DNA of 37,955 nucleotides, from positions 1 through 37,955 of the IMG/VR virus record IMGVR_UViG_3300045988_025591; one strand, 5' to 3'. The translations under genes and the position numbers were made by a program. Below are positions 1 to 23,789 of this stretch, in pieces; position 1 is the first letter of the stretch, and the number at the start of each line of letters is the position of its first letter. Source of the DNA: a virus. The notes beneath the pieces are model-generated. The model did not search any database. It was not told where the DNA came from and was given only the letters and a program-made list of their open reading frames with translations.

Positions 1-364
1 GTATGATTTTATCGCAGATAAGAATCCGACGGAATCATTAAAGAGTTATTCACCTCAGATTTCACAAGATTTAACAATGATTAAAGGTGAAGATGACTTT
101 GAATATATTTACGAACAGATGATGAAATCCGTACCAAACAATGAAGAAGTAAATACAAAAGCTTTACTTGTATTCATGTTTGATGGGGACAAGACTAAAG
201 GTTATAAAGCGTGGGAAGTGGACGCTAAATTGATTTTCGACACATTGAGCGGTGTCGATTCAAAAATCAACTTCAACATTAACTTTGCAAGCGATATTCG
301 TGTCGGAATTGCAAAGGTAGCAGATGGAACAGTTACATTCACAGAAGGCACATCAGAAGTATAA
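1..364 (+). CDS. major tail protein, 3' part (5' part is 37694..37955; the gene spans the circular junction)
   Basis: The frame of track ORF 77..364 stays open back to base 2. Bases 1-119 duplicate 37837-37955, which joins this ORF in frame to the SD-preceded ATA at 37694 (168 codons in total). It lies between the head-tail joining genes and the tail chaperones and tape measure. Confidence 0.7.
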   Translation, partial: YDFIADKNPTESLKSYSPQISQDLTMIKGEDDFEYIYEQMMKSVPNNEEVNTKALLVFMFDGDKTKGYKAWEVDAKLIFDTLSGVDSKINFNINFASDIRVGIAKVADGTVTFTEGTSEV

Positions 365-381
365 GAAAGAAGAGGTAAATC

Positions 382-744
382 ATGAATAGAATCACGTATG
401 AAGGGAAACAGTATGAAATCCCACCTAAGACAATTGATGTATTAAAAGCAGAGGACGCTTGTAACGCATTTCACGCTACACATGAAGAAGCATATCGAGC
501 TAAATTCGATTATCTGAAAACAGTATTAACAGATGAACAACTAGAAAGCATGTTAGGAAGTGCAGACTTTGAACAAGTGGATTTAATGGAAGTGTTATAT
601 ATTGCGAATTTAATTGATGAAGAATATTCAAGAAGAACAGATGAACAAGTAATGAAGAGAGCTAGAACATTAATGAACGATAAAACAATCAAAAGCTTAA
701 TTGATGCAAGCAATGCAGTTTCAAAGGTTACGGAAAATAAATGA
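382..744 (+). CDS. tail assembly chaperone (gpG-like, assigned by position)
   Basis: ATG follows GAGG with a 7-nt spacer. A small acidic protein sits directly between the major tail protein and the tape measure region. The stop overlaps the next start (ATGA). Confidence 0.55.
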   Translation: MNRITYEGKQYEIPPKTIDVLKAEDACNAFHATHEEAYRAKFDYLKTVLTDEQLESMLGSADFEQVDLMEVLYIANLIDEEYSRRTDEQVMKRARTLMNDKTIKSLIDASNAVSKVTENK

Positions 745-1304
745 TTGATTTACGGGCAAAGGGCTTGCCAAATAGCATACAATCGCTAGATGGCGAGCCT
801 ATTTTATTAAATACAGATTTTCGGTTGTGGATTCGCTTCTATGAAGAATTTGAAAGATTCAATAATCATGTTATTGATGAAATAGATTGTTCTTATTTAT
901 TCGTAGATGAACCACCTATCATAGATAAGCATATTTTAAAAGAGCTAAAACGTTTCTTATATAACCCTTCTAGTACGCCTAGAAGTGATTCTACAGGCGC
1001 TAAGACATTAGACTATGTACAAGATGGTGAATATATTTATTCGGCTTTTATGCAACTTTACGGAATTGATTTAACCGAATGTGATATGCATTGGCATAAG
1101 TTCTTAGCATTGGCGAATAATATCGTTGGTGATTCTACATTGTGGGGATATGCAAAAAGCGTTAGGGGATATGAAAAACCTTCAAAGAATGATACACAAG
1201 ATAAAGCATATCAAAGAGCAAAAGAAGCGTGGTCTTTACCAATCGAGTTAACAATAGAGGAACAAGAAATGAAAGATGAATTTGATTCATATTTTGATGT
1301 TTAG
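741..1304 (+). CDS. tail assembly protein, Phage_Gp15-like (assigned by position)
   Basis: The ATGA overlap with the upstream ORF suggests translational coupling. The 187-aa protein lies immediately upstream of the tape measure, as in A118/Sfi11-type siphoviruses. Confidence 0.5.
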   Translation: MIDLRAKGLPNSIQSLDGEPILLNTDFRLWIRFYEEFERFNNHVIDEIDCSYLFVDEPPIIDKHILKELKRFLYNPSSTPRSDSTGAKTLDYVQDGEYIYSAFMQLYGIDLTECDMHWHKFLALANNIVGDSTLWGYAKSVRGYEKPSKNDTQDKAYQRAKEAWSLPIELTIEEQEMKDEFDSYFDV

Positions 1305-1324
1305 AAAAGGAGGTGGCAAATTGA

Positions 1325-3904
1325 ATATCAGATGGAACATTAAAGTTTGATACCAAGATTGATACAAGTGGTCTAGAGAATGGAATGAAATCCGTTCATG
1401 TAGTCACAAGTGGAGCTACAAATGCTATTAAAGAAACTTCAAAAGCGATTGATAAGCTAGGCTCTGATGGTTCAAAAGCACCACCAAAAATTAAAGATAA
1501 ACTTAAAGATTTAAACGAAGAGCAAAAGAATACACAAACAGAAACACAAGAAACGGGTTCAAAGTTTGATGTATTTAAGCAGATTGGAAGCAGTGCCTTA
1601 GAATCAATTCAAGGTGGATTTGATGGACTATTAGGAAAGATTCAGAATATTAGTCCGGAAGCTACTGCAATCACAGAAACATTAACAGGATTAGGCGTTG
1701 GAGGTGTCGTTGGTGTTACCGCCTTAGCCGGAGCTATTGGTGGAATGGCATTAGCAATTAAAACAGGTGTTAATCAAGCTATGGAACTAGATGACGCTAT
1801 GGCTAAATTCCAAGCTCAAACAGGTGCTTCAAGCAGTGAAATGAATAAATTTAAAAACATTGCTCGTGATGTTTGGTCTAATAATTTCGGTTCAGATGTT
1901 TCAGATGTTGCCGATATGATGGGCAGAGTCAAGCAACAAATGCAAGGCATAAGTGATGTTGATTTAAAGAATGTTACAGAAGACTTGATTACATTAAGAG
2001 ACGTTTACGGCATGGACGAGAACGAGACTCTTAGAGGTGCGAAACAATTAATGGAACAGTTTGGAATCAGTTCCGAAAAAGCTTTCGACCTTATGGCTAA
2101 AGGTGCTCAGAATGGTTTGGATTATTCCGGTGAATTAGGAGACAATATCGCAGAATATGCCGGTAAATTTGCACAAGCAGGATATTCGGCAGAAGAATAT
2201 TTCCAAACTATGACAAATGGTGTAAAAGGTGGTTCTTATAACCTTGATAAAATGCAAGACGCAGTAAATGAAATTACTACACGAATGTCAGACGGAACTA
2301 TTGAAGGAGCATTAGATAGTTTCAATGATAAGACAAAAGAAGTTTTTCAAGCATATAAAGAAGGTGGAGCAACACAAAAAGATGTGCAAGACGCAATCGT
2401 CCAAGATATTAAAGAAACAACAAATCAACAAGAAGCGTTAAATAAAGCAAGTATTGCATTTGGCACAATGGGAGAAGATTTCAACCTTAAGTTTATTACA
2501 TCCTTATCATCTGTAGGTGATGAATATAACAATGTAGCTGGAACAATGGATAAAGTTAAAGAAATCGCAAATGGTGGCTTAAAGAACGCTTTAAGCGGTT
2601 TAGGACGTGCGTTTCTTGATTCATTCACCCCAATAGGTGAAGCAATTACTCCTATACTTGCAGGAATTGTAGGACTTATAACAGTAGCTATACAAGGTAT
2701 TCAACAAGGATTTGCAAAGATTGGTGATGTAATTTCAAGTGTATTAAGTAAGATTGATACAAGTGGAATTACAGAATTGACAAGTCAAGTTTCTAAAGTA
2801 TTAGCTCCTGCGTTTAAAGAAGTTAAAAAAGCTATTGATGAAATGAAATCGGCTCTTGAACCTATTGCAAAAGATATATTAAGCAAGATTATTGAAGTCA
2901 TTCAAAACATTGTGAATCAAGCACAAAAGATTATTACCGTAGTAGGACCACCGATATTTTCTGTTTTAAAGAAAATCATTTCAACAGTTTCGGAATTTAT
3001 GCCTTTAATCACATCTATATTGACTATTGTCGGAAGTGTTGTAAGTGGAGTCATTTCATTTATAAATATGGTAGTCACATATACCGGAACGGCAATTGCA
3101 ACGGCAATGGGATTTATCACGCCTATCGTTCAAATCATTTCTACGATTGTAGCAAATATTTGGTCGCTTATCTTAACAGTATTAACAAATATATGGAGTA
3201 AGATTAGTGAAGTTGTAACGGCAATCATTGGATTCGTAAGCAATTTATTTAAGACGGTTACGGATATCATAAACAATATTTGGAGTAAGATTCAAGATAC
3301 AATGAACAGAGTTGGAGATAAAGTAAAAGGTGTTATTGATAATATCAATAAATATTTCAATAATATCAAATCTACGGTTTCAGATGTATTTAATGGAATT
3401 TGGACCAAGATTCAAGGCGTAATGGATAAGGTAGGAAATAAGGTATCCGGAGTGTTAGAAGGAATTAAAAACTCATGGGATGGATTAAAAGCATTTACAA
3501 GTGGTGTATTTAGTGGAATTGAAAGTGCTTGTAACAGTTTAGTTTCTAGTGTCAAAGGTTTCGTAAATGGAGTTATAGGTGGAATTAATGGTGCAATCAG
3601 TATCATCAATAAGATTCCGGGAGTTCACATTGGCAAAATTCCAAGACTAGAACGTGGTGGTGTATTGAAACGTGGTCAGATTGGTTTATTGGAAGGTAAC
3701 GGAGCAGAAGCAGTCGTACCATTAGAAAAAAATAAAGCATGGATTCGTGCCGTGGCAAAAGATATGGCTCAAATCATGCCTAGCGTTACAACGAATAACA
3801 ATGGACAGACTATTAACTTCTACAATAAGGCTCAAAGTCCGGATGAAATCGCTAGAATGTTACGTATGCAAGCAAGATATGGATATGGAGGTGTAGTTCA
3901 ATAG
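1325..3904 (+). CDS. tail tape measure protein (ATA start proposed)
   Basis: Largest ORF in the window, with a Gly/Ala-rich membrane-like segment and long helical repeats. ATA at 1325 is the first codon after an in-frame TGA and lies 8 nt after GGAGGTGG (1309-1316). It adds ISDGTLKFDTKIDTSGLENG, a typical tape-measure N-terminus. The track ATG at 1385 has no good SD. Confidence 0.85.
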   Translation: MSDGTLKFDTKIDTSGLENGMKSVHVVTSGATNAIKETSKAIDKLGSDGSKAPPKIKDKLKDLNEEQKNTQTETQETGSKFDVFKQIGSSALESIQGGFDGLLGKIQNISPEATAITETLTGLGVGGVVGVTALAGAIGGMALAIKTGVNQAMELDDAMAKFQAQTGASSSEMNKFKNIARDVWSNNFGSDVSDVADMMGRVKQQMQGISDVDLKNVTEDLITLRDVYGMDENETLRGAKQLMEQFGISSEKAFDLMAKGAQNGLDYSGELGDNIAEYAGKFAQAGYSAEEYFQTMTNGVKGGSYNLDKMQDAVNEITTRMSDGTIEGALDSFNDKTKEVFQAYKEGGATQKDVQDAIVQDIKETTNQQEALNKASIAFGTMGEDFNLKFITSLSSVGDEYNNVAGTMDKVKEIANGGLKNALSGLGRAFLDSFTPIGEAITPILAGIVGLITVAIQGIQQGFAKIGDVISSVLSKIDTSGITELTSQVSKVLAPAFKEVKKAIDEMKSALEPIAKDILSKIIEVIQNIVNQAQKIITVVGPPIFSVLKKIISTVSEFMPLITSILTIVGSVVSGVISFINMVVTYTGTAIATAMGFITPIVQIISTIVANIWSLILTVLTNIWSKISEVVTAIIGFVSNLFKTVTDIINNIWSKIQDTMNRVGDKVKGVIDNINKYFNNIKSTVSDVFNGIWTKIQGVMDKVGNKVSGVLEGIKNSWDGLKAFTSGVFSGIESACNSLVSSVKGFVNGVIGGINGAISIINKIPGVHIGKIPRLERGGVLKRGQIGLLEGNGAEAVVPLEKNKAWIRAVAKDMAQIMPSVTTNNNGQTINFYNKAQSPDEIARMLRMQARYGYGGVVQ

Positions 3905-4770
3905 ATATCAATAAGGTAAGAGTTATCGTCCGTAGGGATGATGGCAAAGAATTTGAAATTGATAACAAAAGATGGAGAATACCGTCTAGTGATGGTTTAG
4001 ATGGGTTCGACTATGTAGCACCTTCATATACAACCCAAGACAATGCATTCGGAAATGGTGCTAGATTAATCGGTTCACGTATTCCAACGAAAGAAAGAAG
4101 CGTGAAAGCTACCTTTAAAGGCTCATTAGAAGAAAAAAGAGAAGAAAGGGAGAAGCTACGGCGCTTCTTCCAATATTCTCATATGTTTGATGTGATAGTT
4201 GAATATATGGGAGAAAAGAAATATTGCAGAGGTCGTTTATATGCGTATAGCTTGCCTACTGTTAACATCTACAAAGATTTAGAGCTTAACTTTACAATAT
4301 TATGCACACAACCTTTATTGCTTTCATTTGATGATTTTGCAAGGAATATTGCAGAAATTGGTGAAGGTTTAGCATTCAATTTTGAAATACCGGAAACAGG
4401 TGTGAACTTTGGAACATTTACATTCGCTAGAGAAATCTATATTGATAATCAAGGCGATACAGAAACATACTGTAAAGCCGTTATTGAAGCGTTTGGAGAG
4501 GTAACAAATCCGAAATTATTCAATAAAGATAAATATATTCGTGTATTAGATACATTGCACAATGGGGATGTATTAGAAATTGATTTAGTTTCTGAGCCTA
4601 TTTCGATAAAAAAGAATGGTGTGAATTGTATCGGTAAAGTTGACAGGACTTCATCATTCAATGATATGACGATTCAGTTAGGTGAGAATATCATAGGATA
4701 TACGGCAGACAGTGGAGACACTAACCTAGCTTGCACTGTTTACTATAATGAAAGGTATTTAGGTTTATAG
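3901..4770 (+). CDS. distal tail protein (Dit) (ATA start)
   Basis: The frame is open from 3901 and has no ATG/GTG/TTG before the track GTG at 4102. The 67 extra codons (IDINKVRVIVRRDDGKEFEIDNKRWRIPSSDGLDGF...) look like a Dit/phage-tail-family N-terminus. GGAGG lies at 3887-3891, 9 nt upstream. The ATA overlaps the tape measure TAG stop (ATAG). Confidence 0.8.
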   Translation: MDINKVRVIVRRDDGKEFEIDNKRWRIPSSDGLDGFDYVAPSYTTQDNAFGNGARLIGSRIPTKERSVKATFKGSLEEKREEREKLRRFFQYSHMFDVIVEYMGEKKYCRGRLYAYSLPTVNIYKDLELNFTILCTQPLLLSFDDFARNIAEIGEGLAFNFEIPETGVNFGTFTFAREIYIDNQGDTETYCKAVIEAFGEVTNPKLFNKDKYIRVLDTLHNGDVLEIDLVSEPISIKKNGVNCIGKVDRTSSFNDMTIQLGENIIGYTADSGDTNLACTVYYNERYLGL

Positions 4771-4771
4771 T

Positions 4772-5785
4772 ATGTCGTATTTTGGATTAGATAAGAATTT
4801 CAATATCGTGACACATCTAGCGCCTTATAACGTGCAGTGGAATCGGCGATATTATGAGACAGGAGATTTCGAGATTTATATTGATATAGGGCAGTATTCA
4901 AAAGATATCAAATACATTTATTCGACTGAGGATAAAGAGTTAGGAATCGTAGATATACCACACTATTCGGTTTCAAATAACACGAAACAAATGTTGCTAA
5001 AAGGCTCTTTCTTTGAAAAGATTCTAGCAGATGATTGTATTTATCCTACGTTCTCAAGCAGTGGAAAAATTGTTGATGTAGTCAAAAAGCTATTAGACAA
5101 GTATTGCTCATGGAAAATGGGGTATAGATATGATGAATCCATCACCGATAGAGTAGACTTTCAAGAAACAGGAGCAAACCTTGATACAAAGCTTTATGAG
5201 TTGTTATATCCGTTAGAATTGTCTTTCCGTATAGAATATGACTATGTATCAAGTACGTTCACATTCGTGTTGTATCGTGGACGTGATTTAACGCAGAACA
5301 ACGCAGACGGAAACAACTTTGTTACTTTCTCAACAGAGTTTGGAAACATTGAAGAACCGGACGTTATGATTGATTCTAGTAAATACAAGAACTATGCAAT
5401 AATTTGTGGTGAAGGACAGTCAGAAGAGCGTATTTATGTAGAATATGACGCTAGAATAGATAAGAATGAAAGAATCAAAAAGTTGTTCGTAGACGCACGT
5501 TCTGAGCGCATGGGGGATGATATTACACTTGATGAATATAAAAAGGTACTTGTTCAAAAAGGAATTGAAAAACTAGCAGATTGTCAAATTAAAGAGAATG
5601 TGAATTTCGGATTGAATACTGATTCATACGAATACAAGGTTGATTATGATTTAGGTGATAAGGTGGATGTGATTGTCTCAGAAATTGGTTTAGTAATGAC
5701 GGCAAGAATTAGAAATATATTCGAGGTTATTAAAAATGGATACCGAACCTTAGAATTAGAGGTTGATAATTTAAAAATCATGTAA
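4772..5785 (+). CDS. tail-associated/baseplate protein, siphovirus Gp37-like (Tal position)
   Basis: The N-terminus (YNVQWNRRYYETGDFEIYI) resembles the siphovirus Gp37-like family. It lies directly after Dit. Confidence 0.6.
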   Translation: MSYFGLDKNFNIVTHLAPYNVQWNRRYYETGDFEIYIDIGQYSKDIKYIYSTEDKELGIVDIPHYSVSNNTKQMLLKGSFFEKILADDCIYPTFSSSGKIVDVVKKLLDKYCSWKMGYRYDESITDRVDFQETGANLDTKLYELLYPLELSFRIEYDYVSSTFTFVLYRGRDLTQNNADGNNFVTFSTEFGNIEEPDVMIDSSKYKNYAIICGEGQSEERIYVEYDARIDKNERIKKLFVDARSERMGDDITLDEYKKVLVQKGIEKLADCQIKENVNFGLNTDSYEYKVDYDLGDKVDVIVSEIGLVMTARIRNIFEVIKNGYRTLELEVDNLKIM

Positions 5786-5797
5786 GGAGTGAATTTA

Positions 5798-6304
5798 ATA
5801 GAAAAGAACAATGGAGGATTTAAACAAATAACAAGAAGTATGTATTTTCTAGACAAGATGAATGCAATGGGCGGTGTAGCCGTTGCCGTATTAACATACG
5901 TATTAGGTGAGCATTGGTATTTATTTGCGTTCTTCTTATTTGTGAATGTAGTTGATTATATTACAGGGTGCATGAAGTCGGCGATTAATCACAAAATCAA
6001 TAGCAATAAAGGATGGATTGGAGTCCTAAAAAAGCTAGGCTATTGGATTATGATTGTCGTAGCGTTCACATTCAGTGCATTCTTGGTAGAGATTGGAAAA
6101 ATGCTAGGAATTGATTTCCATGTAACCACATTATTAGGATGGTTTGTGTTAGCTTCTTTGTGCATTAATGAAGTGCGTAGCATCATTGAGAACCTTGTAC
6201 AATGTGGATATAGCGTACCTAACGTATTAACTAAAGGACTAGAAGTGGCAGATAAACTCATTAACGAAGAACAAGACAATGACGAATCAAGTACCTTGGA
6301 ATAA
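5798..6304 (+). CDS. holin, phage_holin_4_1 / TcdE-like family (ATA start proposed)
   Basis: Several TM helices and the family motif (VDYITGCMKSAINHKINSNKGWIGVLKKLGYW). AAGGAG lies at 5784-5789 followed by an 8-nt spacer and ATAG. The track GTG at 5789 abuts the SD with zero spacing. Confidence 0.8.
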   Translation: MEKNNGGFKQITRSMYFLDKMNAMGGVAVAVLTYVLGEHWYLFAFFLFVNVVDYITGCMKSAINHKINSNKGWIGVLKKLGYWIMIVVAFTFSAFLVEIGKMLGIDFHVTTLLGWFVLASLCINEVRSIIENLVQCGYSVPNVLTKGLEVADKLINEEQDNDESSTLE

Positions 6305-6545
6305 GATTATTCTTGAAGAATTTATTAATCTTGCTTTATTAACTAAAGATGAAGAAATGATTTTAAGAACTAGAATATATGGATGGACAGTTAGAGAACA
6401 AGCCGATAAATTGAATATGAGTGTTTCAAGTGTGAATAGAATCATCAAAAAAATAAAGACCAAGTATGATGAAGTAGAGAAGTATAGCGCAGTTTTACCA
6501 CCAAGAAAAAGCAGTGAAAAAGAAACGTATCTAGATGAGAATTAA
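6279..6545 (+). CDS. small sigma-70 region-4-like HTH protein
   Basis: LTKDEEMILRTRIYGWTVREQADKLNMSVSSVNRIIKKIK matches the region-4/LuxR-type HTH pattern. It overlaps the holin 3' end and is followed by a strong terminator. Confidence 0.55.
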   Translation: MTNQVPWNKIILEEFINLALLTKDEEMILRTRIYGWTVREQADKLNMSVSSVNRIIKKIKTKYDEVEKYSAVLPPRKSSEKETYLDEN

Positions 6546-6569
6546 GAGGTTGAAAAGCCTCTTTTTTTT
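6544..6569 (+). terminator. rho-independent terminator
   Basis: AAGAGGTT-GAAA-AGCCTCTT forms an 8-bp stem (one G.U pair) with a GAAA tetraloop, followed by T8. Confidence 0.75.
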
Positions 6570-6647
6570 GATATTAATTTGACATTAATGTGGAAACAAA
6601 CTGAGATTGATAATGAATATAATTAGGAGTGTAAAGAGGTGAGCGAA

Positions 6648-7073
6648 ATGTATAATCCAATTAATGACAGAATTAACAATTTAATGAATCAAAAACAGAT
6701 GATTGAATCACAATTACAGACAATTCAACAAATGGCAAATATTCCACCTATTAATATTAACAACCAAATCACGCCTAACATGGCATTAAATGATTTTAAC
6801 GGAAAATGGGTCAATAATGAACAAGAAGCAAGGAATATGATGGTGAATGGTTTGCCTAGTATTATGCTAGATAGAAATGATTCAGTATTCTATATGAAGT
6901 CATTAGACGGCAGTTTCAAAAAATACAGATTCCAAGAAGAAACAAAACCGAAGAAAGATGGCATAGAACAACGCTTAGACAAGCTAGAAGCTATGATATT
7001 AGGTCTAACAAACGGAAGTAATATAAATACAAGGGCAGAGGAAGAAACGCCTAGAAAGGAGCTTAAAGCGTGA
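6648..7073 (+). CDS. hypothetical Q/N-rich protein (cargo island)
   Basis: ATG lies 6 nt after GAGGTG. The track GTG at 6639 is an alternative start. I recognise no family. Confidence 0.5.
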   Translation: MYNPINDRINNLMNQKQMIESQLQTIQQMANIPPININNQITPNMALNDFNGKWVNNEQEARNMMVNGLPSIMLDRNDSVFYMKSLDGSFKKYRFQEETKPKKDGIEQRLDKLEAMILGLTNGSNINTRAEEETPRKELKA

Positions 7074-7279
7074 ATCCTTTAATGAATATGATGAACCCTC
7101 AACAAATGTTGTTAGGGATGTTACAACAAAGAAATCCACAAGCATTTAATCAAGTTCAACAATTAATGCAATGTGGGCAGAATCCCCAAGTATTATTGAA
7201 TAATATGATGGGGCAACTATCGCCACAACAGAAACAACAATTTGAATCAGTGGCTAGTCAATATGGGCTAAAACGCTAA
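7070..7279 (+). CDS. hypothetical Q/M/N-rich small protein
   Basis: GTG lies 8 nt after AAGGAG and overlaps the upstream TGA (GTGA). The protein has low-complexity NPQ/QQ repeats. Confidence 0.5.
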   Translation: MNPLMNMMNPQQMLLGMLQQRNPQAFNQVQQLMQCGQNPQVLLNNMMGQLSPQQKQQFESVASQYGLKR

Positions 7280-7303
7280 TTGCGTTGAAAGGAGGAAATA
7301 TAA

Positions 7304-7915
7304 ATGGAAAGCATGAATGGTATTCAACCAATGTACGATTTAGCAGACAGAAACAACAATGAATTTGGTGGAGGATATTGGATTTGGATTATCCTTTTAT
7401 TCTTGCTATTTGGTGGAAATTGGGGTAACAATGGAAACCTACAGAATGATGAATTAATGAATCAAGAATTTATTAAGCGTGATTTATTCAACACAAATCA
7501 GAATGTATCTAGCCAAGGCTATCAAAATTCAAGAGATATTCTAGAAAGCCGATACACAACTCAATTAGGTTTGCAGAATCTAGGACAACAGAATCAAGAA
7601 TGTTGTTGTGCAACGCAAAGAGCGATTGATGGAGTAAACGCACAAAGTTTTAAAAACACGTGTGATATTACCACTGCAATCCGCTCAGAAGGTGAAGCGA
7701 CAAGAGCATTGATTAATGCTAACACAATGCAAGAATTGCGTGATAAATTAGCAGACAGAGACCGAGATTTATTGACTGCAAACTTCCAATTAAGCCAACA
7801 GGCACAATCTGCAAATATCATCAATACATTGCAACCAACGCCAAAACCTGCATATCTTACTTGCTCACCTTATTATGCATACAATATGACAGGATGTGGA
7901 TGTAACCAAATCTAG
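7304..7915 (+). CDS. hypothetical membrane-anchored Cys-rich protein
   Basis: AGGAGG precedes the ATG. The N-terminal GGGYWIWIILLFLLFGGNWG segment is reminiscent of YjcZ-type small sporulation proteins. It also has a CCC motif and a C-terminal GCGC motif. Confidence 0.5.
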   Translation: MESMNGIQPMYDLADRNNNEFGGGYWIWIILLFLLFGGNWGNNGNLQNDELMNQEFIKRDLFNTNQNVSSQGYQNSRDILESRYTTQLGLQNLGQQNQECCCATQRAIDGVNAQSFKNTCDITTAIRSEGEATRALINANTMQELRDKLADRDRDLLTANFQLSQQAQSANIINTLQPTPKPAYLTCSPYYAYNMTGCGCNQI

Positions 7916-7999
7916 CTCGAAAGAGATTAGGCAATAGCCTTTGGATTATAGGGTAGTCGAAAGGCTACCCATTTATTTTATATACAGGAGGAAAAGAAA

Positions 8000-8419
8000 A
8001 TGATTAATAGTATAGCAACGGCAGTACAGACAGTAACAAATGGACAAAATGTATTATTTCCAACGGATAGGGTAAGAACGAAATCATGTCAATGTGCTTG
8101 TAAAGGTTGGCTCGCTCATGATGTAGGAAGTGGATTGTTTACGTTAACAAAACAAGGAATCTATGAGGTAGAATATACGGCAGATATTACAAGCGCAACA
8201 GTAGGAGTAGCTTCTTTAGAGTTAGAACAGAATGGAGAAATTGTAGGCGGAACACAATCTTTATATAATGTAGCTACTGCAAGCACATACGGAAATGTAA
8301 GTGGAGCTACACTGATTCAAGTACCTTGTGGAGCTTCTTATACAATTACATTAGGCAATAACAGTGGCTTAGATTTATCTGTTCAGAATGCGAATATCAT
8401 CATTAAAAAGTTAGCGTAG
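8000..8419 (+). CDS. BclA C-terminal-domain-like (C1q/TNF-like jelly roll) protein without a collagen region
   Basis: AGGAGG precedes the ATG. GIYEVEYTADIT, LELEQNGEIVGGT and the C-terminal NANIIIKKLA parallel the BclA C-terminal segments (FYKITVIANTA, LTIQVNGVPVPGT, SASIIIEKVA) as I recall them. Confidence 0.55.
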   Translation: MINSIATAVQTVTNGQNVLFPTDRVRTKSCQCACKGWLAHDVGSGLFTLTKQGIYEVEYTADITSATVGVASLELEQNGEIVGGTQSLYNVATASTYGNVSGATLIQVPCGASYTITLGNNSGLDLSVQNANIIIKKLA

Positions 8420-8426
8420 GTGTATC

Positions 8427-8864
8427 ATGCAAGAGGTTAGAAAAAGGAATCTAGACCTCTTAACGGAAGCAATGAGAGGACTAGAAAAAGGATACAATGA
8501 TTTAGACTTTAGAGTTATGAGCCAAGTTTTAGACAATATCAAAGATATTGATACAATACTAGCTATGAGTGATGGAAGAACGGCTATAAACGCATTAAGA
8601 ACAAATGATACAGATATCGAAGGAACAGAAATTGATGATAATATCGCATTGATGAATAGCCATTTTAGAAAATACATAGAAGCAAAAAAAGAATATCGAA
8701 AAGATAACAATGAAATTGATAAGCGAAATTCTATTCGTGAATTGGAAGCTTTCTTAAGCGCTATGTATGGAATTTTAGAAGAAATGAAAACGTCTAGTGA
8801 TTTTCAAGAAGAAAGAGAAATGGTAAGAGATAAATTAAGAGAAATGTTCTCTGTATATCAGTAA
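8427..8864 (+). CDS. hypothetical helical protein
   Basis: A clean ORF, last gene of the island, followed by a strong hairpin. Confidence 0.5.
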   Translation: MQEVRKRNLDLLTEAMRGLEKGYNDLDFRVMSQVLDNIKDIDTILAMSDGRTAINALRTNDTDIEGTEIDDNIALMNSHFRKYIEAKKEYRKDNNEIDKRNSIRELEAFLSAMYGILEEMKTSSDFQEEREMVRDKLREMFSVYQ

Positions 8865-8870
8865 AAAAAA

Positions 8871-8914
8871 CCTCTTTTATGTGCTATAATTGGCATATAA
8901 AGGAGGATTTTTTT
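8871..8914 (+). terminator. terminator-like hairpin whose 3' arm contains the endolysin SD
   Basis: A 14-bp stem pairs 8871-8884 with 8893-8906 (two G.U pairs), closing an 8-nt loop. It is flanked by A8 upstream and T7 downstream (8908-8914). The 3' arm includes AGGAGG (8901-8906). Confidence 0.65.
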
Positions 8915-8915
8915 A

Positions 8916-9689
8916 ATAAATTATCAAAGTTTTAAAAATGCCGTATTAGGCAAAGTTTTCGACATTGATGGATATTATGGTGCTCAATGTTGGGATGGAT
9001 TCGCAAAGTATATGATTGATTTAGGGTACAAGGCAATCCACTGTACAACAAGTGGATACGTAAAAGACATTTGGAATAACAGAAAGACAAATGGAATCTT
9101 AAATTATTGCAATGAAGTTACAGTAATGCAAGCCGGAGATATCGCAGTATTCAGAGAAGTAGCAGGATGGACTCCATACTCACACATTGCAATTTTCGAT
9201 TCAGACATTGATGGTAAATTCGGATGGTTTCTAGGTCAAAATCAAGGTGGAAAGCTTGGGTCATTTACATTATGTAAATTACCATACAGTGCTACATTTG
9301 ATACGGCTTTTAGACCTAAATGTCTTGCAAATGCTAAACCAACACAGACGGTTAAACCTAAACCAGTAGTTACTCCAAAAGAAGCAATTGACCAAATCTT
9401 ACATGTTGGAAGTTACGTCACATCTGTTCAAATGAAGATTGGAAATCAAGGATTAAAAAAGATTAATAACGATACTTGTGCCTATTTATCTCAATTAGGT
9501 GGATGGTTTCCAATTTCAATGGTAACAAAGGTCAGATATTCTGATGGATTCAATGATGATGTATTGCACACTACAAATGCAGTGGTATACATTACTAGAA
9601 TTAGAGTTGATGAAGTCAACGTACAAAAGAACCTTGTCAAGATTGGTGGTATTTGGGTAAGTGCTACACCATTAATTGAAGTAGCATAA
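8916..9689 (+). CDS. endolysin, N-terminal CHAP domain plus C-terminal cell-wall-binding region (ATA start)
   Basis: The CHAP catalytic-Cys motif (YYGAQCWDGF) lies upstream of the track ATG at 9012. The frame opens at 8901 after a TAA and has no ATG/GTG/TTG before 9012. ATA at 8916 lies 9 nt after AGGAGG. The His region (YSHIAIFD) and GQNQGG lie downstream. Confidence 0.85.
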   Translation: MNYQSFKNAVLGKVFDIDGYYGAQCWDGFAKYMIDLGYKAIHCTTSGYVKDIWNNRKTNGILNYCNEVTVMQAGDIAVFREVAGWTPYSHIAIFDSDIDGKFGWFLGQNQGGKLGSFTLCKLPYSATFDTAFRPKCLANAKPTQTVKPKPVVTPKEAIDQILHVGSYVTSVQMKIGNQGLKKINNDTCAYLSQLGGWFPISMVTKVRYSDGFNDDVLHTTNAVVYITRIRVDEVNVQKNLVKIGGIWVSATPLIEVA

Positions 9690-9725
9690 TAAAAAAAGCG
9701 TTCAACTATTATTTATTGACTAATC

Positions 9726-9757
9726 GAGCCTACGTATAATGCGTAGGTTCTTTTTTT
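9726..9757 (+). terminator. rho-independent terminator after the lysis genes
   Basis: GAGCCTACG / CGTAGGTTC forms a 9-bp stem (one G.U pair) with a 7-nt loop, followed by T7. Confidence 0.75.
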
Positions 9758-9775
9758 ATTTTCCTAAAAAAGTTC

Positions 9776-9804
9776 TTTACAAGTACTTACTTATATGTTA
9801 TACT
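9776..9804 (+). promoter_or_regulatory. sigma-A-type promoter for the moron block
   Basis: TTTACA (9776-9781), a 17-nt spacer, then TATACT (9799-9804) preceded by TGT (extended -10). Confidence 0.6.
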
Positions 9805-9854
9805 ATATATGTGGTCAGTTAAAGACAAGGAATATTTGTTTTAGGAGGTAAAAT

Positions 9855-9977
9855 ATGAAAGCAAATAAAAAAAGCAATCACAAAGCAGAGCAAGCTAACA
9901 TCTACTTAGAGATTGCTAAGAATGTTATTGAGATTATAGTGCTAATAATAACATTCATAAAGAGCTTAGGGAATTAA
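9855..9977 (+). CDS. hypothetical 40-aa peptide with a basic N-terminus and hydrophobic C-terminus
   Basis: ATG follows AGGAGG. This ORF is not in the track because it is under 60 aa. Its 3' end lies in a perfect 20-bp palindrome (9966-9985). Confidence 0.45.
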   Translation: MKANKKSNHKAEQANIYLEIAKNVIEIIVLIITFIKSLGN

Positions 9978-10025
9978 TTCCCTAACTCTTTACTTCATTG
10001 TACCACATAAAAGGAGGAACAAGAA

Positions 10026-10115
10026 ATGAAAAAGCTAGAAATAATTAAGATGATTCTAAATGCAATTACAATTGTATTATTAATTGCAATATTGATTGTA
10101 TGGTTTGTTAAGTAA
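10026..10115 (+). CDS. hypothetical 29-aa single-TM peptide
   Basis: Preceded by AGGAGGAACAAGAAATG. The sequence MKKLEIIKMILNAITIVLLIAILIVWFVK is a charged head followed by one TM helix. Confidence 0.5.
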   Translation: MKKLEIIKMILNAITIVLLIAILIVWFVK

Positions 10116-10136
10116 TATATAAGGAGGACGCAAGAA

Positions 10137-10409
10137 ATGATAGATACTGCTAATGCAAAATGGGACTTCTCAAAAGAAGAAAAATATGTTATTAAATGGT
10201 TCAATGATAATGGATTTAACGGAAAGATAATAAAACAATATGTAAGCAAGACAATTTTTGAAATAGAAAAAGACAACATAGTTGATAAATTTGAATTACC
10301 GCAAGGAATTGTTTTTCACAATATACAATCCTACATGAAACAATTCCAAAAAAACTGGGATATGATATGTGAATTACACAAATTGAGACAATTAAAAAGA
10401 GTGCACTAG
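10137..10409 (+). CDS. hypothetical protein
   Basis: The conserved cassette AGGAGGACGCAAGAAATG precedes the start. Confidence 0.6.
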   Translation: MIDTANAKWDFSKEEKYVIKWFNDNGFNGKIIKQYVSKTIFEIEKDNIVDKFELPQGIVFHNIQSYMKQFQKNWDMICELHKLRQLKRVH

Positions 10410-10411
10410 AA

Positions 10412-10654
10412 ATGACATTTAAATATTATGCAGTAATGCAAGGAGAAGTTGTTGATAAAAGCAACTCGTTGACAAGTTTAAAAAATAGAATGGACGAATA
10501 TGTCCATTCTATGCCAAGCAATATGGATTACGTTCATATTGTTACAGGAAAAAAGAATCCATTAATCGTAAAATATTATGATATGTTTAACGATAAGTGG
10601 TATTCTAGTAGTAACAGATACAACGATATTTTTAAGAAAATTACAATTGAATAA
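10412..10654 (+). CDS. hypothetical protein
   Basis: Tightly packed after the previous ORF, with a weak SD. Confidence 0.55.
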   Translation: MTFKYYAVMQGEVVDKSNSLTSLKNRMDEYVHSMPSNMDYVHIVTGKKNPLIVKYYDMFNDKWYSSSNRYNDIFKKITIE

Positions 10655-10671
10655 TTTAGGAGGAACACAAG

Positions 10672-10875
10672 ATGACAAATTTAAAACAATTGCAAAACGT
10701 ATGTAAAGAAGTTAATGAAAAGATGGATACAGTTAATGAAGAAGAATTGAAAGAAATCGTAAATGGATATTATAAGGATGATGTAATATCATGCAGACAA
10801 TGGGATTTCTTAATTGGTTACATTGAAAGAAAAGAAAAGATTAATGATAGTTTCGCATTTATGTATAGCGAATAG
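10672..10875 (+). CDS. hypothetical protein
   Basis: Preceded by AGGAGGAACACAAGATG. Confidence 0.6.
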   Translation: MTNLKQLQNVCKEVNEKMDTVNEEELKEIVNGYYKDDVISCRQWDFLIGYIERKEKINDSFAFMYSE

Positions 10876-10888
10876 GAGGACGCAAGAA

Positions 10889-11179
10889 ATGAAAATTAAT
10901 AATGTAGAGGTAGTTGGAAATAAATTTGCATATGATGGATGCCATAAAATATACATCATTGAAGATGAACAAGATGAACAGAAAGCTATTGATTGTGGAT
11001 ATGAAATCTTGGATATTTCTAAATTAGTCAATACATATAAATATAGTTGTGAATTAAGATTTATTCACAATTGGAAATTGACGAAGACATATGTTGCTCA
11101 ATTTGAAAATGCAACATTTGAAGTGAATGGACAAACATATGAGTTCGTAAATGATGAAGATGATGATGAATGGTATTAG
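10889..11179 (+). CDS. hypothetical protein
   Basis: The start is moved from the track TTG at 10814 to the ATG at 10889, which is preceded by AGGAGGACGCAAGAAATG (identical to the cassette at 10122). Confidence 0.65.
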   Translation: MKINNVEVVGNKFAYDGCHKIYIIEDEQDEQKAIDCGYEILDISKLVNTYKYSCELRFIHNWKLTKTYVAQFENATFEVNGQTYEFVNDEDDDEWY

Positions 11180-11190
11180 GAGGAATGTTA

Positions 11191-11373
11191 ATGGCAACGG
11201 AAGCACAGATTCGAGCTAACAATAAATTTAATAAGGCTAACACGAAGATGGTTAGCCTTCGTTTGAACTACAATACAGACGCAGACATCATCCAAAAATT
11301 GAATGAAGTTGATTCTAAAATGGGGTACATTAAGGAATTGATACGAAAAGATATGCAGGCTAAAAAAAAATAG
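11191..11373 (+). CDS. small DNA-binding-like protein (possible ribbon-helix-helix); RDF candidate by position
   Basis: ATG at 11191 lies 7 nt after AGGAGG; the track ATG at 11170 lacks an SD. The pattern VSLRLNYNTDADIIQKL...GYIKELIRKD resembles Arc/CopG-type proteins. This is the last gene before the putative attP. Confidence 0.5.
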   Translation: MATEAQIRANNKFNKANTKMVSLRLNYNTDADIIQKLNEVDSKMGYIKELIRKDMQAKKK

Positions 11374-11385
11374 TCTGCATTTTTT
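11353..11385 (+). terminator. rho-independent terminator ending the moron block
   Basis: ATGCAGGC / GTCTGCAT forms the stem (one G.U pair) with an A-rich loop, followed by T5. Confidence 0.65.
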
Positions 11386-11386
11386 A

Positions 11387-11560
11387 TTGGCATATTTTTT
11401 GGCATATTTTATATTGAAAATCGCAGTATTATAGAGTACGTAAAAGTACTGTAGATTACTACAACAATATGGTGGAATATATCTGTCCGATTCTGATATA
11501 ATAAATAAAATCCTATATATAAAGCATATATAGGAACATTGGCATATTTTTGGCATATTC
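11387..11560. repeat. putative attP region: two pairs of tandem TTGGCATATT(T/C)T repeats flanking an AT-rich core
   Basis: TTGGCATATTTT occurs at 11387-11398 and 11399-11410, and again at 11539-11550 with TTGGCATATTC at 11550-11560. A perfect 10-bp inverted repeat TCCTATATAT/ATATATAGGA lies at 11511-11535. The 250-bp region is non-coding and sits directly upstream of the integrase. Confidence 0.45.
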
Positions 11561-11627
11561 TTACATGAATTATGCCTTTTTTTTATCCTTTTTCTTGTGT
11601 ATGATGATAAAAAAAGAGGTGCAAGAA

Positions 11628-12722
11628 ATGGCAGTCAAGAAAGATGAAACAACAGGCAAATGGATGTATTACGGTTCATATAAATTGAATGGAAAGGTCA
11701 AGCAATATAAGAAGCGTGGCTTTGAAAAAAAGAAGGACGCTATAAAAGCCGAGATTCTATTCAAAGAGAATTTAAAAGAACCAAACGCAACCATCACATT
11801 TAAAGAACTATCTTATCAATATCAAGTATACAGTGAAAAAAGAATTAAGGAAAGTACATACTTTACACAAAGAGCAATTCTGAAATATTGGGAAGATGAG
11901 CTAGGTGAATGTGAAATAAAAAAGCTTACATCAAATAATATTGAAAAAGCTATTAATAAATTAATGCAGTCAATGGCATTTGATTCAGTGCTTAACTATT
12001 ATACAAAATTTAGAGCAGTATTGAACTATGCAGTAAGACAAGGATATATTCAAGTGAATCCATGCAATAAGATTGATTTGAAGAAAAATCCAAACGAAAA
12101 AAAGAAAGACATGATGTATTGGACAGTTGAGCAATTCAACAAGTTTATAGCAAATGAAGATAAACCGGTATATCATTTATTATTTATGAATCAATTCTAT
12201 ATGGGTATGAGAATAGGCGAAACATTAGCTTTACAGTGGAAAGATATTGATTTAGTAAATAATACTATTAATATACAAAAGACATGGGCAGAAACATTGA
12301 GAAAAACAACGACGCCAAAAACAAATAATAGTTATAGATTAATTACTATGCCGAAGTTTCTATCTGATGAATACAAGATATTTAAAGAGAATATGCACGC
12401 AAATGAGAATGACTATATATTCGGCATGACAATACCTTTTTATCGAAGCTCAGTTAGAAAAGAAATGAATGAGACTATCAAGAAAACAAATATTAAGCTA
12501 CAACAGAATGAGCAAATACCTTATATAAGAATACACGATTTAAGGCACTCATGTGCAAGCTATATGATTAACAATATGGTTACAGATGGAACAGTGAATT
12601 TCTCTGTATATGACATTGCGAAAAGATTAGGTGATAACCTTGATACTGTTCTTTCAGTATACGCTCATTGGTTACCACAAGCAGACAAAGGCATTGTCAA
12701 ATTTATGGAGAAAAACAAATAG
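11628..12722 (+). CDS. int: tyrosine recombinase (phage integrase)
   Basis: The start is moved to the ATG at 11628 (AGAGGTGCAAGAAATG). It has an N-terminal arm-binding-type domain (KWMYYGSYKLNGKVKQYKKRGFEKKKDA), a catalytic region with RIGETLAL, HDLRHSCASY and a C-terminal LSVYAHW (Tyr). Confidence 0.9.
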   Translation: MAVKKDETTGKWMYYGSYKLNGKVKQYKKRGFEKKKDAIKAEILFKENLKEPNATITFKELSYQYQVYSEKRIKESTYFTQRAILKYWEDELGECEIKKLTSNNIEKAINKLMQSMAFDSVLNYYTKFRAVLNYAVRQGYIQVNPCNKIDLKKNPNEKKKDMMYWTVEQFNKFIANEDKPVYHLLFMNQFYMGMRIGETLALQWKDIDLVNNTINIQKTWAETLRKTTTPKTNNSYRLITMPKFLSDEYKIFKENMHANENDYIFGMTIPFYRSSVRKEMNETIKKTNIKLQQNEQIPYIRIHDLRHSCASYMINNMVTDGTVNFSVYDIAKRLGDNLDTVLSVYAHWLPQADKGIVKFMEKNK

Positions 12723-14036: not shown

Positions 14037-14054
14037 AAACGGAGGATACAAGAA

Positions 14055-14207
14055 ATGAAATCACAAGAAGAAATTAGAAAAAGACAACAAGAATATAAGG
14101 ACAAAATGTTCAATAAATTCAGTAATGAATTTACAAGAAAGATTATTCTTCAAAAGCAAAATCAAATGCTTAGAGAAGAAATAGAAAGATTAAAAGCTAA
14201 TCAATAA
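14055..14207 (+). CDS. hypothetical 50-aa coiled-coil protein (first early gene; no HTH seen)
   Basis: Preceded by GGAGGATACAAGAAATG. Not in the track because it is under 60 aa. Confidence 0.5.
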   Translation: MKSQEEIRKRQQEYKDKMFNKFSNEFTRKIILQKQNQMLREEIERLKANQ

Positions 14208-14221
14208 GGAGGAAGCAAGAA

Positions 14222-14503
14222 ATGACAAACGAACAAATTATCCAAAACACAAAAAAATCATTAGGAATGGGAGAATTTGAACCTCTCCACACTTTCCAAA
14301 AATGGAAAGAAATGGGATTCAAAGTTAAGAAAGGTGAGCATGCTACAGTTTGTACAAAGTTATGGAAACCTAAAGCCAAAAAGTACACCGACACAAATGG
14401 TGAAGAAAAAGTTGAAAACAATTTCTTTTTAGCAAAAGCTTACTTGTTTAAATTGAATCAAGTTGAGCGAATCAATCAAAATGCAGAACCATTAATGAAT
14501 TAG
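14222..14503 (+). CDS. ArdC N-terminal-domain-like ssDNA-binding protein (tentative)
   Basis: Preceded by AGGAGGAAGCAAGAAATG. The motif HTFQKWKEMGFKVKKGEHA resembles the ArdC/DUF1738 N-terminal motif. Confidence 0.5.
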   Translation: MTNEQIIQNTKKSLGMGEFEPLHTFQKWKEMGFKVKKGEHATVCTKLWKPKAKKYTDTNGEEKVENNFFLAKAYLFKLNQVERINQNAEPLMN

Positions 14504-21938: not shown

Positions 21939-22113
21939 CAAACACGCGGAAAGATGGGAAGAATTACGCCAAAAAAATCCACGTTTAGCAATGGAATATT
22001 TAAGAATTTACTCCACTATGGAGAAAGCTCAAAAGCATTTTAATAATTTTAAAAAAGATTGTAACGATTGGCTAGATAATATTTATAAGGATGGAGTGAA
22101 AAAAAATGATTAA
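21931..22113 (+). CDS. hypothetical protein
   Basis: A short ORF overlapping both neighbours. Confidence 0.45.
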   Translation: MNSKHAERWEELRQKNPRLAMEYLRIYSTMEKAQKHFNNFKKDCNDWLDNIYKDGVKKND

Positions 22114-22588
22114 TGTAGCAGTAATAGCAGGGCACTTAACTAAAGATGTTGAACTATCAAAAACACAAAATGGAAATAGCGTAGCAAAGTTTACGGTAGC
22201 AGTAAATGGATACAATGATACAACAGATTTTATTAATTGTGTAGCATGGAACAAGCTCGCAGATATTGTCAATATGTATTGCAAGAAAGGCGATTTGGTC
22301 ACAGTAGAAGGAAGAATCAGTGTTAGAAATTATGAGAATCAACAAGGACAGAAAATGTATATCACTGAAGTGGTAGCTAGTAACGTGCAATTACCGCCTA
22401 AAAACGCTTCTAATGGGCAAAATTACAATTCTAATGTAAATACATATCAACAATCGAATCAAGCAAATAACAACAATTACGGCGTGCAAAACACATACAC
22501 GCAACCTAGTTTGACACAACAAATTGCACAACAAGAATACAATGAAAGCAATTTAGATATTGCTTCAGATGATTTACCTTTTAAGTAA
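22106..22588 (+). CDS. ssb: single-stranded DNA-binding protein
   Basis: An OB-fold N-terminus (MINVAVIAGHLTKDVEL...FTVAVN...FINCVAWNKLADIV), a Q/N-rich linker and the acidic tail DDLPF. Confidence 0.9.
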   Translation: MINVAVIAGHLTKDVELSKTQNGNSVAKFTVAVNGYNDTTDFINCVAWNKLADIVNMYCKKGDLVTVEGRISVRNYENQQGQKMYITEVVASNVQLPPKNASNGQNYNSNVNTYQQSNQANNNNYGVQNTYTQPSLTQQIAQQEYNESNLDIASDDLPFK

Positions 22589-22614
22589 TTCTATAGCTTG
22601 ACGAACTATAGAAT
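22588..22614 (+). other. hairpin after ssb (weak terminator candidate)
   Basis: ATTCTATAG / CTATAGAAT forms a 9-bp stem with a 9-nt loop. No T-run follows. Confidence 0.35.
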
Positions 22615-22641
22615 AAAATTGTCAAAAAATGGAGGTAACTA

Positions 22642-23229: not shown

Positions 23230-23245
23230 TACGGAGGTGAATTTA

Positions 23246-23440
23246 ATAGAAATGAATCATGAAGAAAGGATTAAAGAGTTAATTTCTAAAAACAATAAAC
23301 TAGGAAGGACAAATATTGAGCTTAATCAGATTATAAAAGAAAGAAATGCAACAATTCATAATCAAGCGCATGAAATAAAGAAATTAAAATATAAAGTTGG
23401 CGAATTAGAAGATAGATTGTATAAGGTATACAGTTCATGA
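23246..23440 (+). CDS. hypothetical coiled-coil protein (start uncertain: ATA 23246, GTG 23237 or ATG 23252)
   Basis: GGAGG lies at 23233-23237. ATA is 8 nt downstream, the GTG overlaps the SD, and the ATG is 14 nt away. Confidence 0.45.
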   Translation: MEMNHEERIKELISKNNKLGRTNIELNQIIKERNATIHNQAHEIKKLKYKVGELEDRLYKVYSS

Positions 23441-23763: not shown

Positions 23764-23772
23764 GCATTTTTT
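23748..23772 (+). terminator. rho-independent terminator
   Basis: GTGCTCAC-aat-GTGAGCAT forms a 7-9 bp stem followed by T6. The stem includes the stop codon of the upstream gene. Confidence 0.75.
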
Positions 23773-23774
23773 CA

Positions 23775-23783: not shown

Positions 23784-23789
23784 TGTTTT

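Follow-up and report, generated by a model that had tools for sequence, protein, structure and literature searches.

A terminator-like hairpin with an embedded promoter-like element in the leader of a phage endolysin gene, and dense use of ATA start codons in the same phage clade

Layout of the endolysin leader

We analyzed the leader of a predicted endolysin (lysin) gene in the virus record IMGVR_UViG_3300045988_025591 of IMG/VR (positions 1 to 37,955; this whole stretch of 37,955 nucleotides [nt] is referred to as the window, and coordinates are those of the window unless a related locus is named). The window is a complete temperate siphovirus-like genome encoding terminase, portal, head proteins, tape measure, Dit, holin, integrase, and a repressor region. 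Between an upstream open reading frame (ORF) and the lysin gene, the segment 8863-8918 contains, partly overlapping one another, an A-run, a hairpin, a promoter-like extended -10 element, a Shine-Dalgarno (SD) sequence, a T-run, and the ATA codon at which the lysin appears to start (Table 1). An earlier sequence-only reading of this DNA had listed the SD, the T7 run, the ATA, the CHAP motif, and the extended -10, all of which we located where it had put them.

The stop codon of the upstream ORF (TAA, 8862-8864) is separated from the start of the stem by 6 nt; the 3' end of this ORF is kept in relatives, and a remnant of it persists in relative L016. The A-run that overlaps the stop codon measures A5 to A8 in relatives. 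The arms of the stem, CCTCTTTTATGTGCTA (8871-8886) and TGGCATATAAAGGAGG (8891-8906), pair with each other around the loop TAAT, and the AGGAGG core of the SD (8901-8906) is followed by a single A (8907) ahead of the T-run. In the lysin frame, a TAA is located at 8898-8900 and the earliest ATG at 9012. The whole composite, comprising the hairpin, the -10, the SD, and the ATA, recurs in about 26 independent related contigs from IMG/VR, metagenome, and Logan data.

The lysin and its ATA start codon

The product of 8916-9689 is a predicted CHAP-domain phage endolysin. It matches the Pfam CHAP family (PF05257) over residues 18-97 with 26.8 bits against a cut-off of 26 and nine PHROG families, of which eight are endolysins and one is a tail-associated cell-wall hydrolase. 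Residues 7-111 can be aligned with the solved CHAP domains of LysK, LytN, and lysin L2, and Q24-C25-W26-D27, H90, and N109 are invariant in an alignment of 45 homologues. The C-terminal wall-binding domain has no assigned family. The codon for the catalytic Cys25 (TGT, 8988-8990), part of the motif YYGAQCWDGF (8973-9002), is located 5' of the first ATG, and the next canonical start after the ATA is codon 33, past Cys25.

The comparative evidence that the lysin starts at ATA 8916 is strong. A database search yielded 828 lysin homologues, and the full-length proteins among them (252-257 amino acids [aa]) begin with MNYEQF or MTYQEF exactly at the ATA position. Several clusters, one of them with 852 members, read 'M..KGGF(F)LINYQSF', which results from an accidental start further upstream, from which the gene caller continued across the SD and T-run, and others are cut to 'MQAGD'. 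The start codon is ATA in all 24 hairpin-linked lysins with a CHAP domain (of about 26 module loci). The length of the T-run varies among these loci in steps that are not multiples of 3; the frame upstream of the ATA is therefore not conserved, which means that the ATA is the earliest point at which translation can begin. Codons 2-32, including that of Cys25, are under purifying selection: across 22 distinct sequences, there are no stops or frameshifts, and the ratio of nonsynonymous to synonymous variation (pN/pS) is 0.22 at a pS of 0.39. The ATA follows an 8-nt SD at a distance of 9 nt, and the SD/anti-SD duplex (-12.0 kcal/mol) is the best in the reading frame. Lysin homologues in any other upstream context start with ATG or GTG (L001, L004, L017, L019-21, L025-30, L037, L391-395), and in L013 (/L123, about 2977-3003) the codon before the ATA is TTG instead of TTA, that is, a canonical start. 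The start proposed by the sequence-only reading is thus borne out by the methionine at this position in homologues, the uniform ATA, the free length of the T-run, and purifying selection; the shorter product from 9012, which lacks the catalytic Cys25 and would begin at a non-conserved methionine, is in our view not the enzyme.

Other candidate starts were considered and rejected. ATT 8907 shares the lysin frame only in the T7 variants; the loop TTG, which no SD precedes, does so only in the T5 variants. A separate frame of 17 codons starts at ATG 8879 and joins the lysin frame only when the T-run is longer (protein P0006), and slippage or frameshifting on the T-run was discarded because the run length varies freely. 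Among the homologues, P0053 is not a case of a non-canonical start, the protein being shortened by a scaffold gap at a locus that has ATG; P0039 comes from a true ATA locus. Gene callers err at this gene in both directions, reporting proteins of 225 aa (from ATG 9012) or about 183 aa ('MQAGD') that lack the catalytic cysteine or extending the frame through the SD, and endolysin mining of gut metagenomes would recover dead enzymes.

The hairpin

RNAfold paired 8871-8886 with 8891-8906 in a stem of 16 base pairs (bp; 5 G-C, 8 A-U, and 3 G-U) closed by the loop UAAU. The sequence-only reading had described a 14-bp hairpin with the SD as its 3' arm; the hairpin and the position of the SD stand, and the length is corrected. 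The free energy of the hairpin alone is -21.3 kcal/mol (z = -7.6; 0 of 200 shuffles as good), and pairing of the flanking A8 and U7 brings it to -27.1 kcal/mol. The same helix dominates the fold of a 141-nt context, and all 6 nt of AGGAGG are predicted to be paired in the minimum free energy and centroid folds of both the 81-nt and the 141-nt contexts. In a terminator scan, the hairpin at 8871 was the strongest terminator-like site within 6000-12000, with a stable stem that is followed by an A and U7 and lies 3' of a co-oriented stop codon.

Pairing was analyzed in an alignment of 20 distinct sequences and column statistics in 19 aligned sequences; L290 and L304 were added by a loose DNA pattern search, and the other matches listed for such loose patterns are mostly due to chance. 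Standard pairs make up 96.6% of the pair cells, compared to 45-66% in slid registers. The 3' arm varies only by transitions opposite G or U, which keep the pairing, and L304 has lost 1 nt in each arm with the register of the stem kept. The T-run is T5, T7, or T8 in relatives and is broken in L013 and L290 (AUUCUUG and AUUCUUA, respectively), where the stem also carries an A-G mismatch. In L037, a relative without the hairpin, the arrangement is SD-T6-ATG, so that a T6 spacer is found there as well. The SD is the 3' arm of what is predicted to be a stable, conserved, terminator-like hairpin, which probably stops upstream transcripts and hides the ribosome-binding site (RBS). A variant arrangement is found in L014 (2900-2990), where a deletion shortens the upstream ORF such that it reads through the 5' arm and ends at the TAA inside the TATAAT of the loop; this would force ribosomal melting of the hairpin.

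The embedded extended -10 element

The upper 5' arm and the loop contain TGCTATAAT (8882-8890), which, when widened to 8880-8890, becomes TGTGCTATAAT, an exact match to TRTGnTATAAT. The element looks like an extended -10 of the host sigma-A; no phage-specific late motif was recognised at it, and reading the sequence upstream of 8880-8890 by eye revealed no -35 box better than 3/6. The motif is significant only by its position and conservation. The upper 5' arm together with the loop (ATGTGCTATAAT) is variable at 1 of 12 columns and its pairing partner at 5 of 8 (Fisher p = 0.018), and the SD AAAGGAGG is invariant. The single change in the 5' arm, G to A at the R position in L016 and L290, keeps TRTG and creates an A-C mismatch, and transitions that would improve pairing were never seen in the upper 5' arm and loop. 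The positions that do vary, 8891-8896, are exactly those of the discriminator region between the -10 and the predicted start near 8897. This asymmetry of conservation gives moderate support to a sequence-specific constraint, such as a promoter. For RNA from 8897, no significant structure is predicted, and the SD is unpaired in the centroid. These observations agree with the proposal of the sequence-only reading that the extended -10 is placed such that a transcript from about 8897 would lack the 5' arm, and the -10 is conserved beyond what pairing needs.

Similar spacings are found elsewhere. Unrelated phages contain TGCTATAATT-N7-AAAGGAGG followed by ATG, some with perfect TTGACA -35 boxes, and L397, a contig of a closely related bacterium, has several promoter regions in which the -10 is only 7-9 nt before the SD. 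The loop of the terminator downstream of the lysin (9726-9750) likewise contains TATAAT (CCTACGTATAATGCGTAGG) but lacks the TG extension, and a separate promoter-like site, TTTACA-17-TATACT, is located 3' of this terminator at 9776-9804.

Predicted terminators between holin and lysin

Three predicted terminators (6544, 7951, and 8871) lie between the holin and the lysin in the window. No comparable terminator was found on the + strand earlier in the scanned late region (22000-37955 and 1-6500), and the span 6000-12000 contains 9 terminator-like sites compared to 2.1 expected. A 2.6-kb block separates the holin from the lysin (6300-8860) and encodes, among others, a BclA_C-like protein (8000-8419) and Q/N-rich proteins. 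In L014 (2690-2950) and L016 (2826-2950), most of the 6.3-8.8 kb segment is gone, and the hairpin is located directly between holin and lysin. This block behaves as an indel-variable island, in line with the cargo island that the earlier reading had placed upstream of the lysin; because L014 and L016 keep the hairpin without the island, the hairpin belongs to the lysin leader and not to the island.

Relatives in which the lysin starts with ATG (L025-L029, L391, L393-L395) also have a terminator-like hairpin with a U-run just upstream of the lysin, in the 70 nt before the ATG; their SD is located 3' of the U-run and is free. In L025-L029, the loop of this hairpin contains the stop codon of the holin. 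No obvious promoter was seen upstream of the lysin in these ATG-type relatives. A predicted terminator before the lysin is a theme of the group, and only the clade of the window folds the SD and the -10 into it.

ATA start codons across the phage genome

Among all GGAGG sites in the window, we looked for those that border a long open frame on its 5' side and have no canonical start at 5-11 nt. Each of the nine strong-SD sites of this kind has ATA at 6-10 nt; ATA accounts for 1.2% of internal codons, and ATT, ATC, and CTG are never used at such sites. When weaker forms of the SD are also counted, ATA is the start codon of at least 12 genes (about 20%), 6-11 nt 3' of the SD (Table 1). PHROG alignments of these proteins start in register (for the major head protein, residues 2-288 correspond to profile positions 2-294 of 297), and the ATA start codons are kept as ATA in relatives. 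The holin start is ATG in L016, L086, L088, and L089, and the start at 7304, ATG in the window, is ATA in L396. The SDs of ATA genes are stronger (median of -11.7 vs -9.4 kcal/mol; p = 1.5e-4), and ATA starts are concentrated in the late region (11 of 33 genes vs 2 of 37 early, lysogeny, or cargo genes; p = 0.004). Standard gene callers truncate or extend all ATA-start genes. The lysin ATA is one case of what is, as judged from these comparisons, a habit of the whole clade, namely, the pairing of ATA starts with extra-strong SDs.

Several simpler accounts of this pattern were rejected. ATA starts are not a trait of the bacterial chromosome, given that 20 of 20 genes on L397 and 7 of 7 chromosomal genes flanking the prophage in L396 start with ATG. 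The other phage groups in the sample use ATG. A phage tRNA reading AUA is ruled out by the lack of tRNA genes in the window, and the scan of early and middle genes brought up no recognisable TilS-like or IF3-like (initiation factor 3) phage gene. That ATA serves as a brake solely for low-copy proteins is at odds with the ATA start of the major head protein. Megablast of 8000-9800 against GenBank phages gave no match, and tblastn with the portal retrieved only relatives of at most 43% identity, the nearest of which, MT837573, uses ATG throughout. A PDB sequence search with the major head protein also gave no match. On the minus strand of L397 (16870-16900), the best SD of an aminotransferase gene (-13.7 kcal/mol) precedes an in-frame ATT located 7 codons upstream of the called ATG, and this ATT may be a non-canonical start.

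In the literature searched, we found no report of dense ATA-start use in a phage clade. Such a density in a single clade, extending to the most abundant virion protein, is unexpected and more novel than the leader. The misannotation described for the lysin hits about 1 gene in 5 in this clade, the major head protein and the portal included. AUA is usually seen as an oddity, rare and regulatory; the dense use of ATA challenges this view and opens the fidelity of start-codon choice in these bacteria to direct testing.

Proposed mechanism and alternative explanations

From the features described above, we infer promoter activity, termination, and masking at the leader. Our preferred reading, held with moderate confidence, is that 8863-8918 is a composite leader of the CHAP endolysin that would work like the leader of phage T4 gene e. 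RNA arriving from the island or the late operon would mostly end at the U-run, and on RNA that reads through, the SD would be locked in the -21 kcal/mol helix and poorly translated. RNA polymerase would fire from the embedded extended -10, which has no -35, with a start near 8897; the resulting RNA would be devoid of the 5' arm, leaving the SD free, and, closed at 9726-9757, would constitute a monocistronic lysin mRNA. A separate lysin promoter would be needed because of the terminators at 6544, 7951, and 8871. The sequence-only reading had envisaged three stacked controls on lysin synthesis; the masking hairpin and the embedded -10 are real and conserved, whereas the ATA does not qualify as a lysin-specific layer, being shared by at least 12 genes across the genome, including those for the major head protein, the portal, and the holin.

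Several points weigh against the composite leader. The motif TGNTATAAT occurs 3 times in the window compared to 4.8 expected and, hence, is not over-represented in this AT-rich DNA. The G/U-rich 5' arm allows the 3' arm to drift by transitions, so that part of the conservation asymmetry needs no promoter, and the aligned sequences are close kin (about 80-90% identity) with few independent substitutions. Given the broken U-run in L013 and L290, termination may not be universally maintained. The ATG-type relatives indicate that read-through or antitermination evidently can serve lysin expression in this phage group. Finally, a consensus -10 of the sigma-A type should fire in lysogens too, which would be odd for a role in timing; this objection is softened in that cytoplasmic lysin is harmless without holin.

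The main alternative, possible although rather doubtful, is a terminator combined with translational coupling and no internal promoter, the hairpin doing no more than ending or attenuating transcription from upstream. The lysin would then be made from read-through or antiterminated RNA, on which ribosomes ending the upstream ORF, with its stop 6 nt before the stem, would melt the base of the stem and free the SD; the TATAAT in the loop would be incidental. A terminating ribosome has a footprint that would reach 8871-8874, the nucleotides that pair with the GAGG of the SD, and the distance from stop to stem is 6-7 nt in most relatives. Compatible with coupling are also the shortened ORF of L014 that stops within the loop, the succession of terminator and SD without an obvious promoter in the ATG-type relatives, and the chance frequency of TGNTATAAT in the window. 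However, coupling would open only about 4 bp, leaving a 12-bp helix in place, and in L016, where only a remnant of the upstream ORF is left, the module is intact. Moreover, the invariance of the loop and 5' arm exceeds the need for pairing, the one change in the 5' arm preserving TRTG at the expense of a pair, and RNA polymerase would have to pass three terminators to reach the lysin.

With respect to the start codon, it seems unlikely that ATA was selected at the lysin gene as a weak start that holds lysin output down and tunes the timing of lysis. Such selection would account for the fixation of ATA in 24 of 24 hairpin-linked lysins even though one transition gives ATG, for the ATG or GTG starts of lysins in every other upstream context, and for the reduced output known for AUA in Staphylococcus aureus (see below), but not for the ATA starts of the other genes, including all nine strong-SD sites. 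Lysis timing is set by holins rather than by the endolysin level, which also counts against a lysin-specific brake. Under AT mutation pressure, ATA may be no more than a start that is tolerated or that lowers output mildly. We attach only slight credence to a broader explanation, namely, that the ATA starts constitute a phage-wide translational programme in which efficient initiation needs start-codon fidelity to be relaxed, in a state-dependent manner or by the phage, for instance, via lowered IF3 discrimination or an altered initiator tRNA. Under such a programme, structural and lysis proteins would not be translated from leaky prophage transcripts and would be made only in lytic growth, and the last gene in the series, the lysin, would be guarded additionally by its leader with the terminator, the masked SD, and the internal promoter.

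It is quite improbable that the hairpin is an RNA-processing site where RNase III or another nuclease cuts long late transcripts and thereby frees the SD. RNase III activation of phage mRNAs is known from T7 and lambda, and the helix, which reaches about 24 bp with one bulge when the A/U extension is counted, falls within the size range of RNase III substrates, but nothing specific points to processing, the A-run and U-run lengths vary among relatives, and the invariant TRTGnTATAAT is left unexplained. Hardly credible at all is a disabled gene, in which ATA would leave no lysin or only the 225 aa from ATG 9012: gene callers report 9012-9689 only and a weak SD-like sequence precedes 9012 (-6.0 kcal/mol), but the product lacks Cys25, Met33 is not conserved (Leu in L012, Tyr in L109), selection has kept codons 2-32 intact in the 22 distinct sequences, and the ATA is common to about 26 contigs and to protein clusters with hundreds of members.

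Neighboring genes and host

The host of the phage belongs to Erysipelotrichaceae, and its ABC-F protein is about 60% identical to those of Holdemanella, Floccifex, and Catenisphaera. L397, from a closely related bacterium (ABC-F identity of 97%), shows the site without a prophage; comparison of L396 (11900-12000) with L397 (5419-5507) places a related prophage next to the csoR-copA copper operon.

In the lysis region, the holin gene is followed by a gene for an 88-aa protein (6279-6545) with weak similarity to sigma-70 region 4, ECF-sigma, and 'positive control sigma-like factor' proteins (E = 1e-4 to 7e-6), which may be a small transcription regulator. In L086 (10180-11582) and L088, another N-terminal region, which, by eye, we take to be amidase-type, stands in place of the CHAP domain and is joined to the same C-terminal wall-binding domain. 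Both retain the hairpin/SD/ATAAATTAT module, now followed by a small ORF; the frame of the new lysin of L086 is open from ATA 10485, upstream of the first ATG at 10539.

Several small cargo and early genes are preceded by near-identical RBS cassettes, GGAGGA-[CT][GA]CAAGAA-ATG (10123-10139, 10875-10891, 14041-14057, and 14208-14224). Just upstream of the terminase, the window encodes a ParB-like protein (24257-24730), a queuine tRNA-ribosyltransferase/DpdA-like protein (24853-25632; PHROG 887, E = 2e-59, and a weak NCBIfam DpdA match), and a QueT transporter (25949-26407; Pfam QueT, E = 2e-26). Together, these genes (24257-26407) look like a module for 7-deazaguanine DNA modification or for import of a queuosine precursor.

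Table 1. Coordinates of the lysin leader, the lysis region, and the ATA-start genes in the window
Feature	Position	Strand	Remarks
Upstream ORF, 145 aa	8427..8864	+	Function unassigned; from ORF list; sole family match PHROG 28802
A8 run	8863..8870	+	Overlaps ORF stop codon; pairs with U-run in fold, extending the helix
16-bp hairpin	8871..8906	+	5' arm 8871-8886, loop 8887-8890, 3' arm 8891-8906
Extended -10, TRTGnTATAAT, promoter-like	8880..8890	+	In 5' arm and loop; TGTGCTATAAT
Predicted transcription start	8897	+	7 nt 3' of -10; inferred from sequence
SD	8899..8906	+	AAAGGAGG; base of hairpin 3' arm; invariant in relatives
T7 run	8908..8914	+	Proposed U-tract on read-in RNA; SD-to-start spacer on lysin mRNA
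Lysin initiation codon, ATA	8916..8918	+	Comparative evidence
CHAP endolysin, 257 aa	8916..9689	+	Pfam, PHROG, alignment to solved CHAP domains
Intrinsic terminator closing lysin unit	9726..9757	+	11-bp stem, 5 G-C pairs, then T7
Holin	5798..6304	+	PHROG 199; ATA start 5798
First strong terminator after late operon	6544..6563	+	After holin and 88-aa helix-turn-helix (HTH) gene
Second terminator, within island	7951..7970	+	Terminator scan
Tape measure	1325		ATA start
Dit	3901		ATA start
Lysin	8916		ATA start
Replication initiator	18487		ATA start
Gene of unknown function	22642		ATA start
QueT-like	25949		ATA start
Portal	28113		ATA start
Head protein	29513		ATA start
Gene of unknown function	30956		ATA start
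Major head protein	35135		ATA start
Minor head protein	36916		ATA start

Comparison with known systems

The closest parallel to the proposed leader is T4 gene e, in which the 5' strand of an RBS-masking hairpin contains promoters (McPheeters et al. 1986, reviewed in PMC3014915); T4 soc, gene 49, and I-TevI share this arrangement. Experiments on gene e have shown that the RBS is sequestered on long early transcripts, from which about 100-fold less lysozyme is made, and that RNA from the internal promoters, being free of the inhibitory arm, is translated (PMC3014915). As in gene e, a phage lysis enzyme would be controlled, the SD would be sequestered on upstream RNA, and RNA from the internal promoter is predicted to lack the inhibitory arm. 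Unlike in gene e, the helix in the window is also a putative intrinsic terminator with a U-run, the lysin starts at ATA, and the leader is known from sequence alone. The promoter-like element is a host sigma-A-type extended -10 with no evident temporal specificity, in contrast to a phage late promoter, and the phage is temperate with a Gram-positive host of the Erysipelotrichaceae. If the leader works as proposed, the gene e design would have arisen independently in a temperate phage of gut Erysipelotrichaceae, with a masked RBS, a promoter, and a terminator fused into 36 nt, a very compact insulator for a lysis gene.

For the start codon, the precedent is the Firmicute S. aureus, where infC, ccpN, citZ, and cvfC1 have AUA or AUU starts with extended SDs, the AUA starts reaching 10-30% of the output of AUG (PMC13009471). 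In the phage as in S. aureus, the AUA is correctly spaced from an unusually long, strong SD and is conserved among relatives, and a reduced yet substantial output is expected; by this analogy, the lysin ATA probably gives roughly 10-30% of the AUG level. The two cases differ in extent, with few genes per genome and a regulatory role in S. aureus as opposed to about 20% of the genes, including that for the most abundant structural protein, in the phage. They also differ in the bacterium itself, all 20 genes sampled on the contig of the closely related bacterium having ATG.

The leader of the lysis cassette of mycobacteriophage Ms6, in work said to be by Garcia and colleagues in 2002, reportedly consists of a promoter and then an intrinsic terminator upstream of the lysis genes. 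Common to both phages is the terminator immediately upstream of the lysis genes, which implies transcriptional control of the lysin supply. In Ms6, the terminator is 3' of the promoter, an antitermination design, whereas in the window the terminator stem itself contains both the -10 and the SD. The leader also resembles the ordinary overlap of terminator and RBS in compact operons, in that a stem-loop and U-run after a stop codon overlap the next initiation region. It is set apart from such overlaps by the conservation of TRTGnTATAAT and by the strict linkage of the composite with the ATA start.

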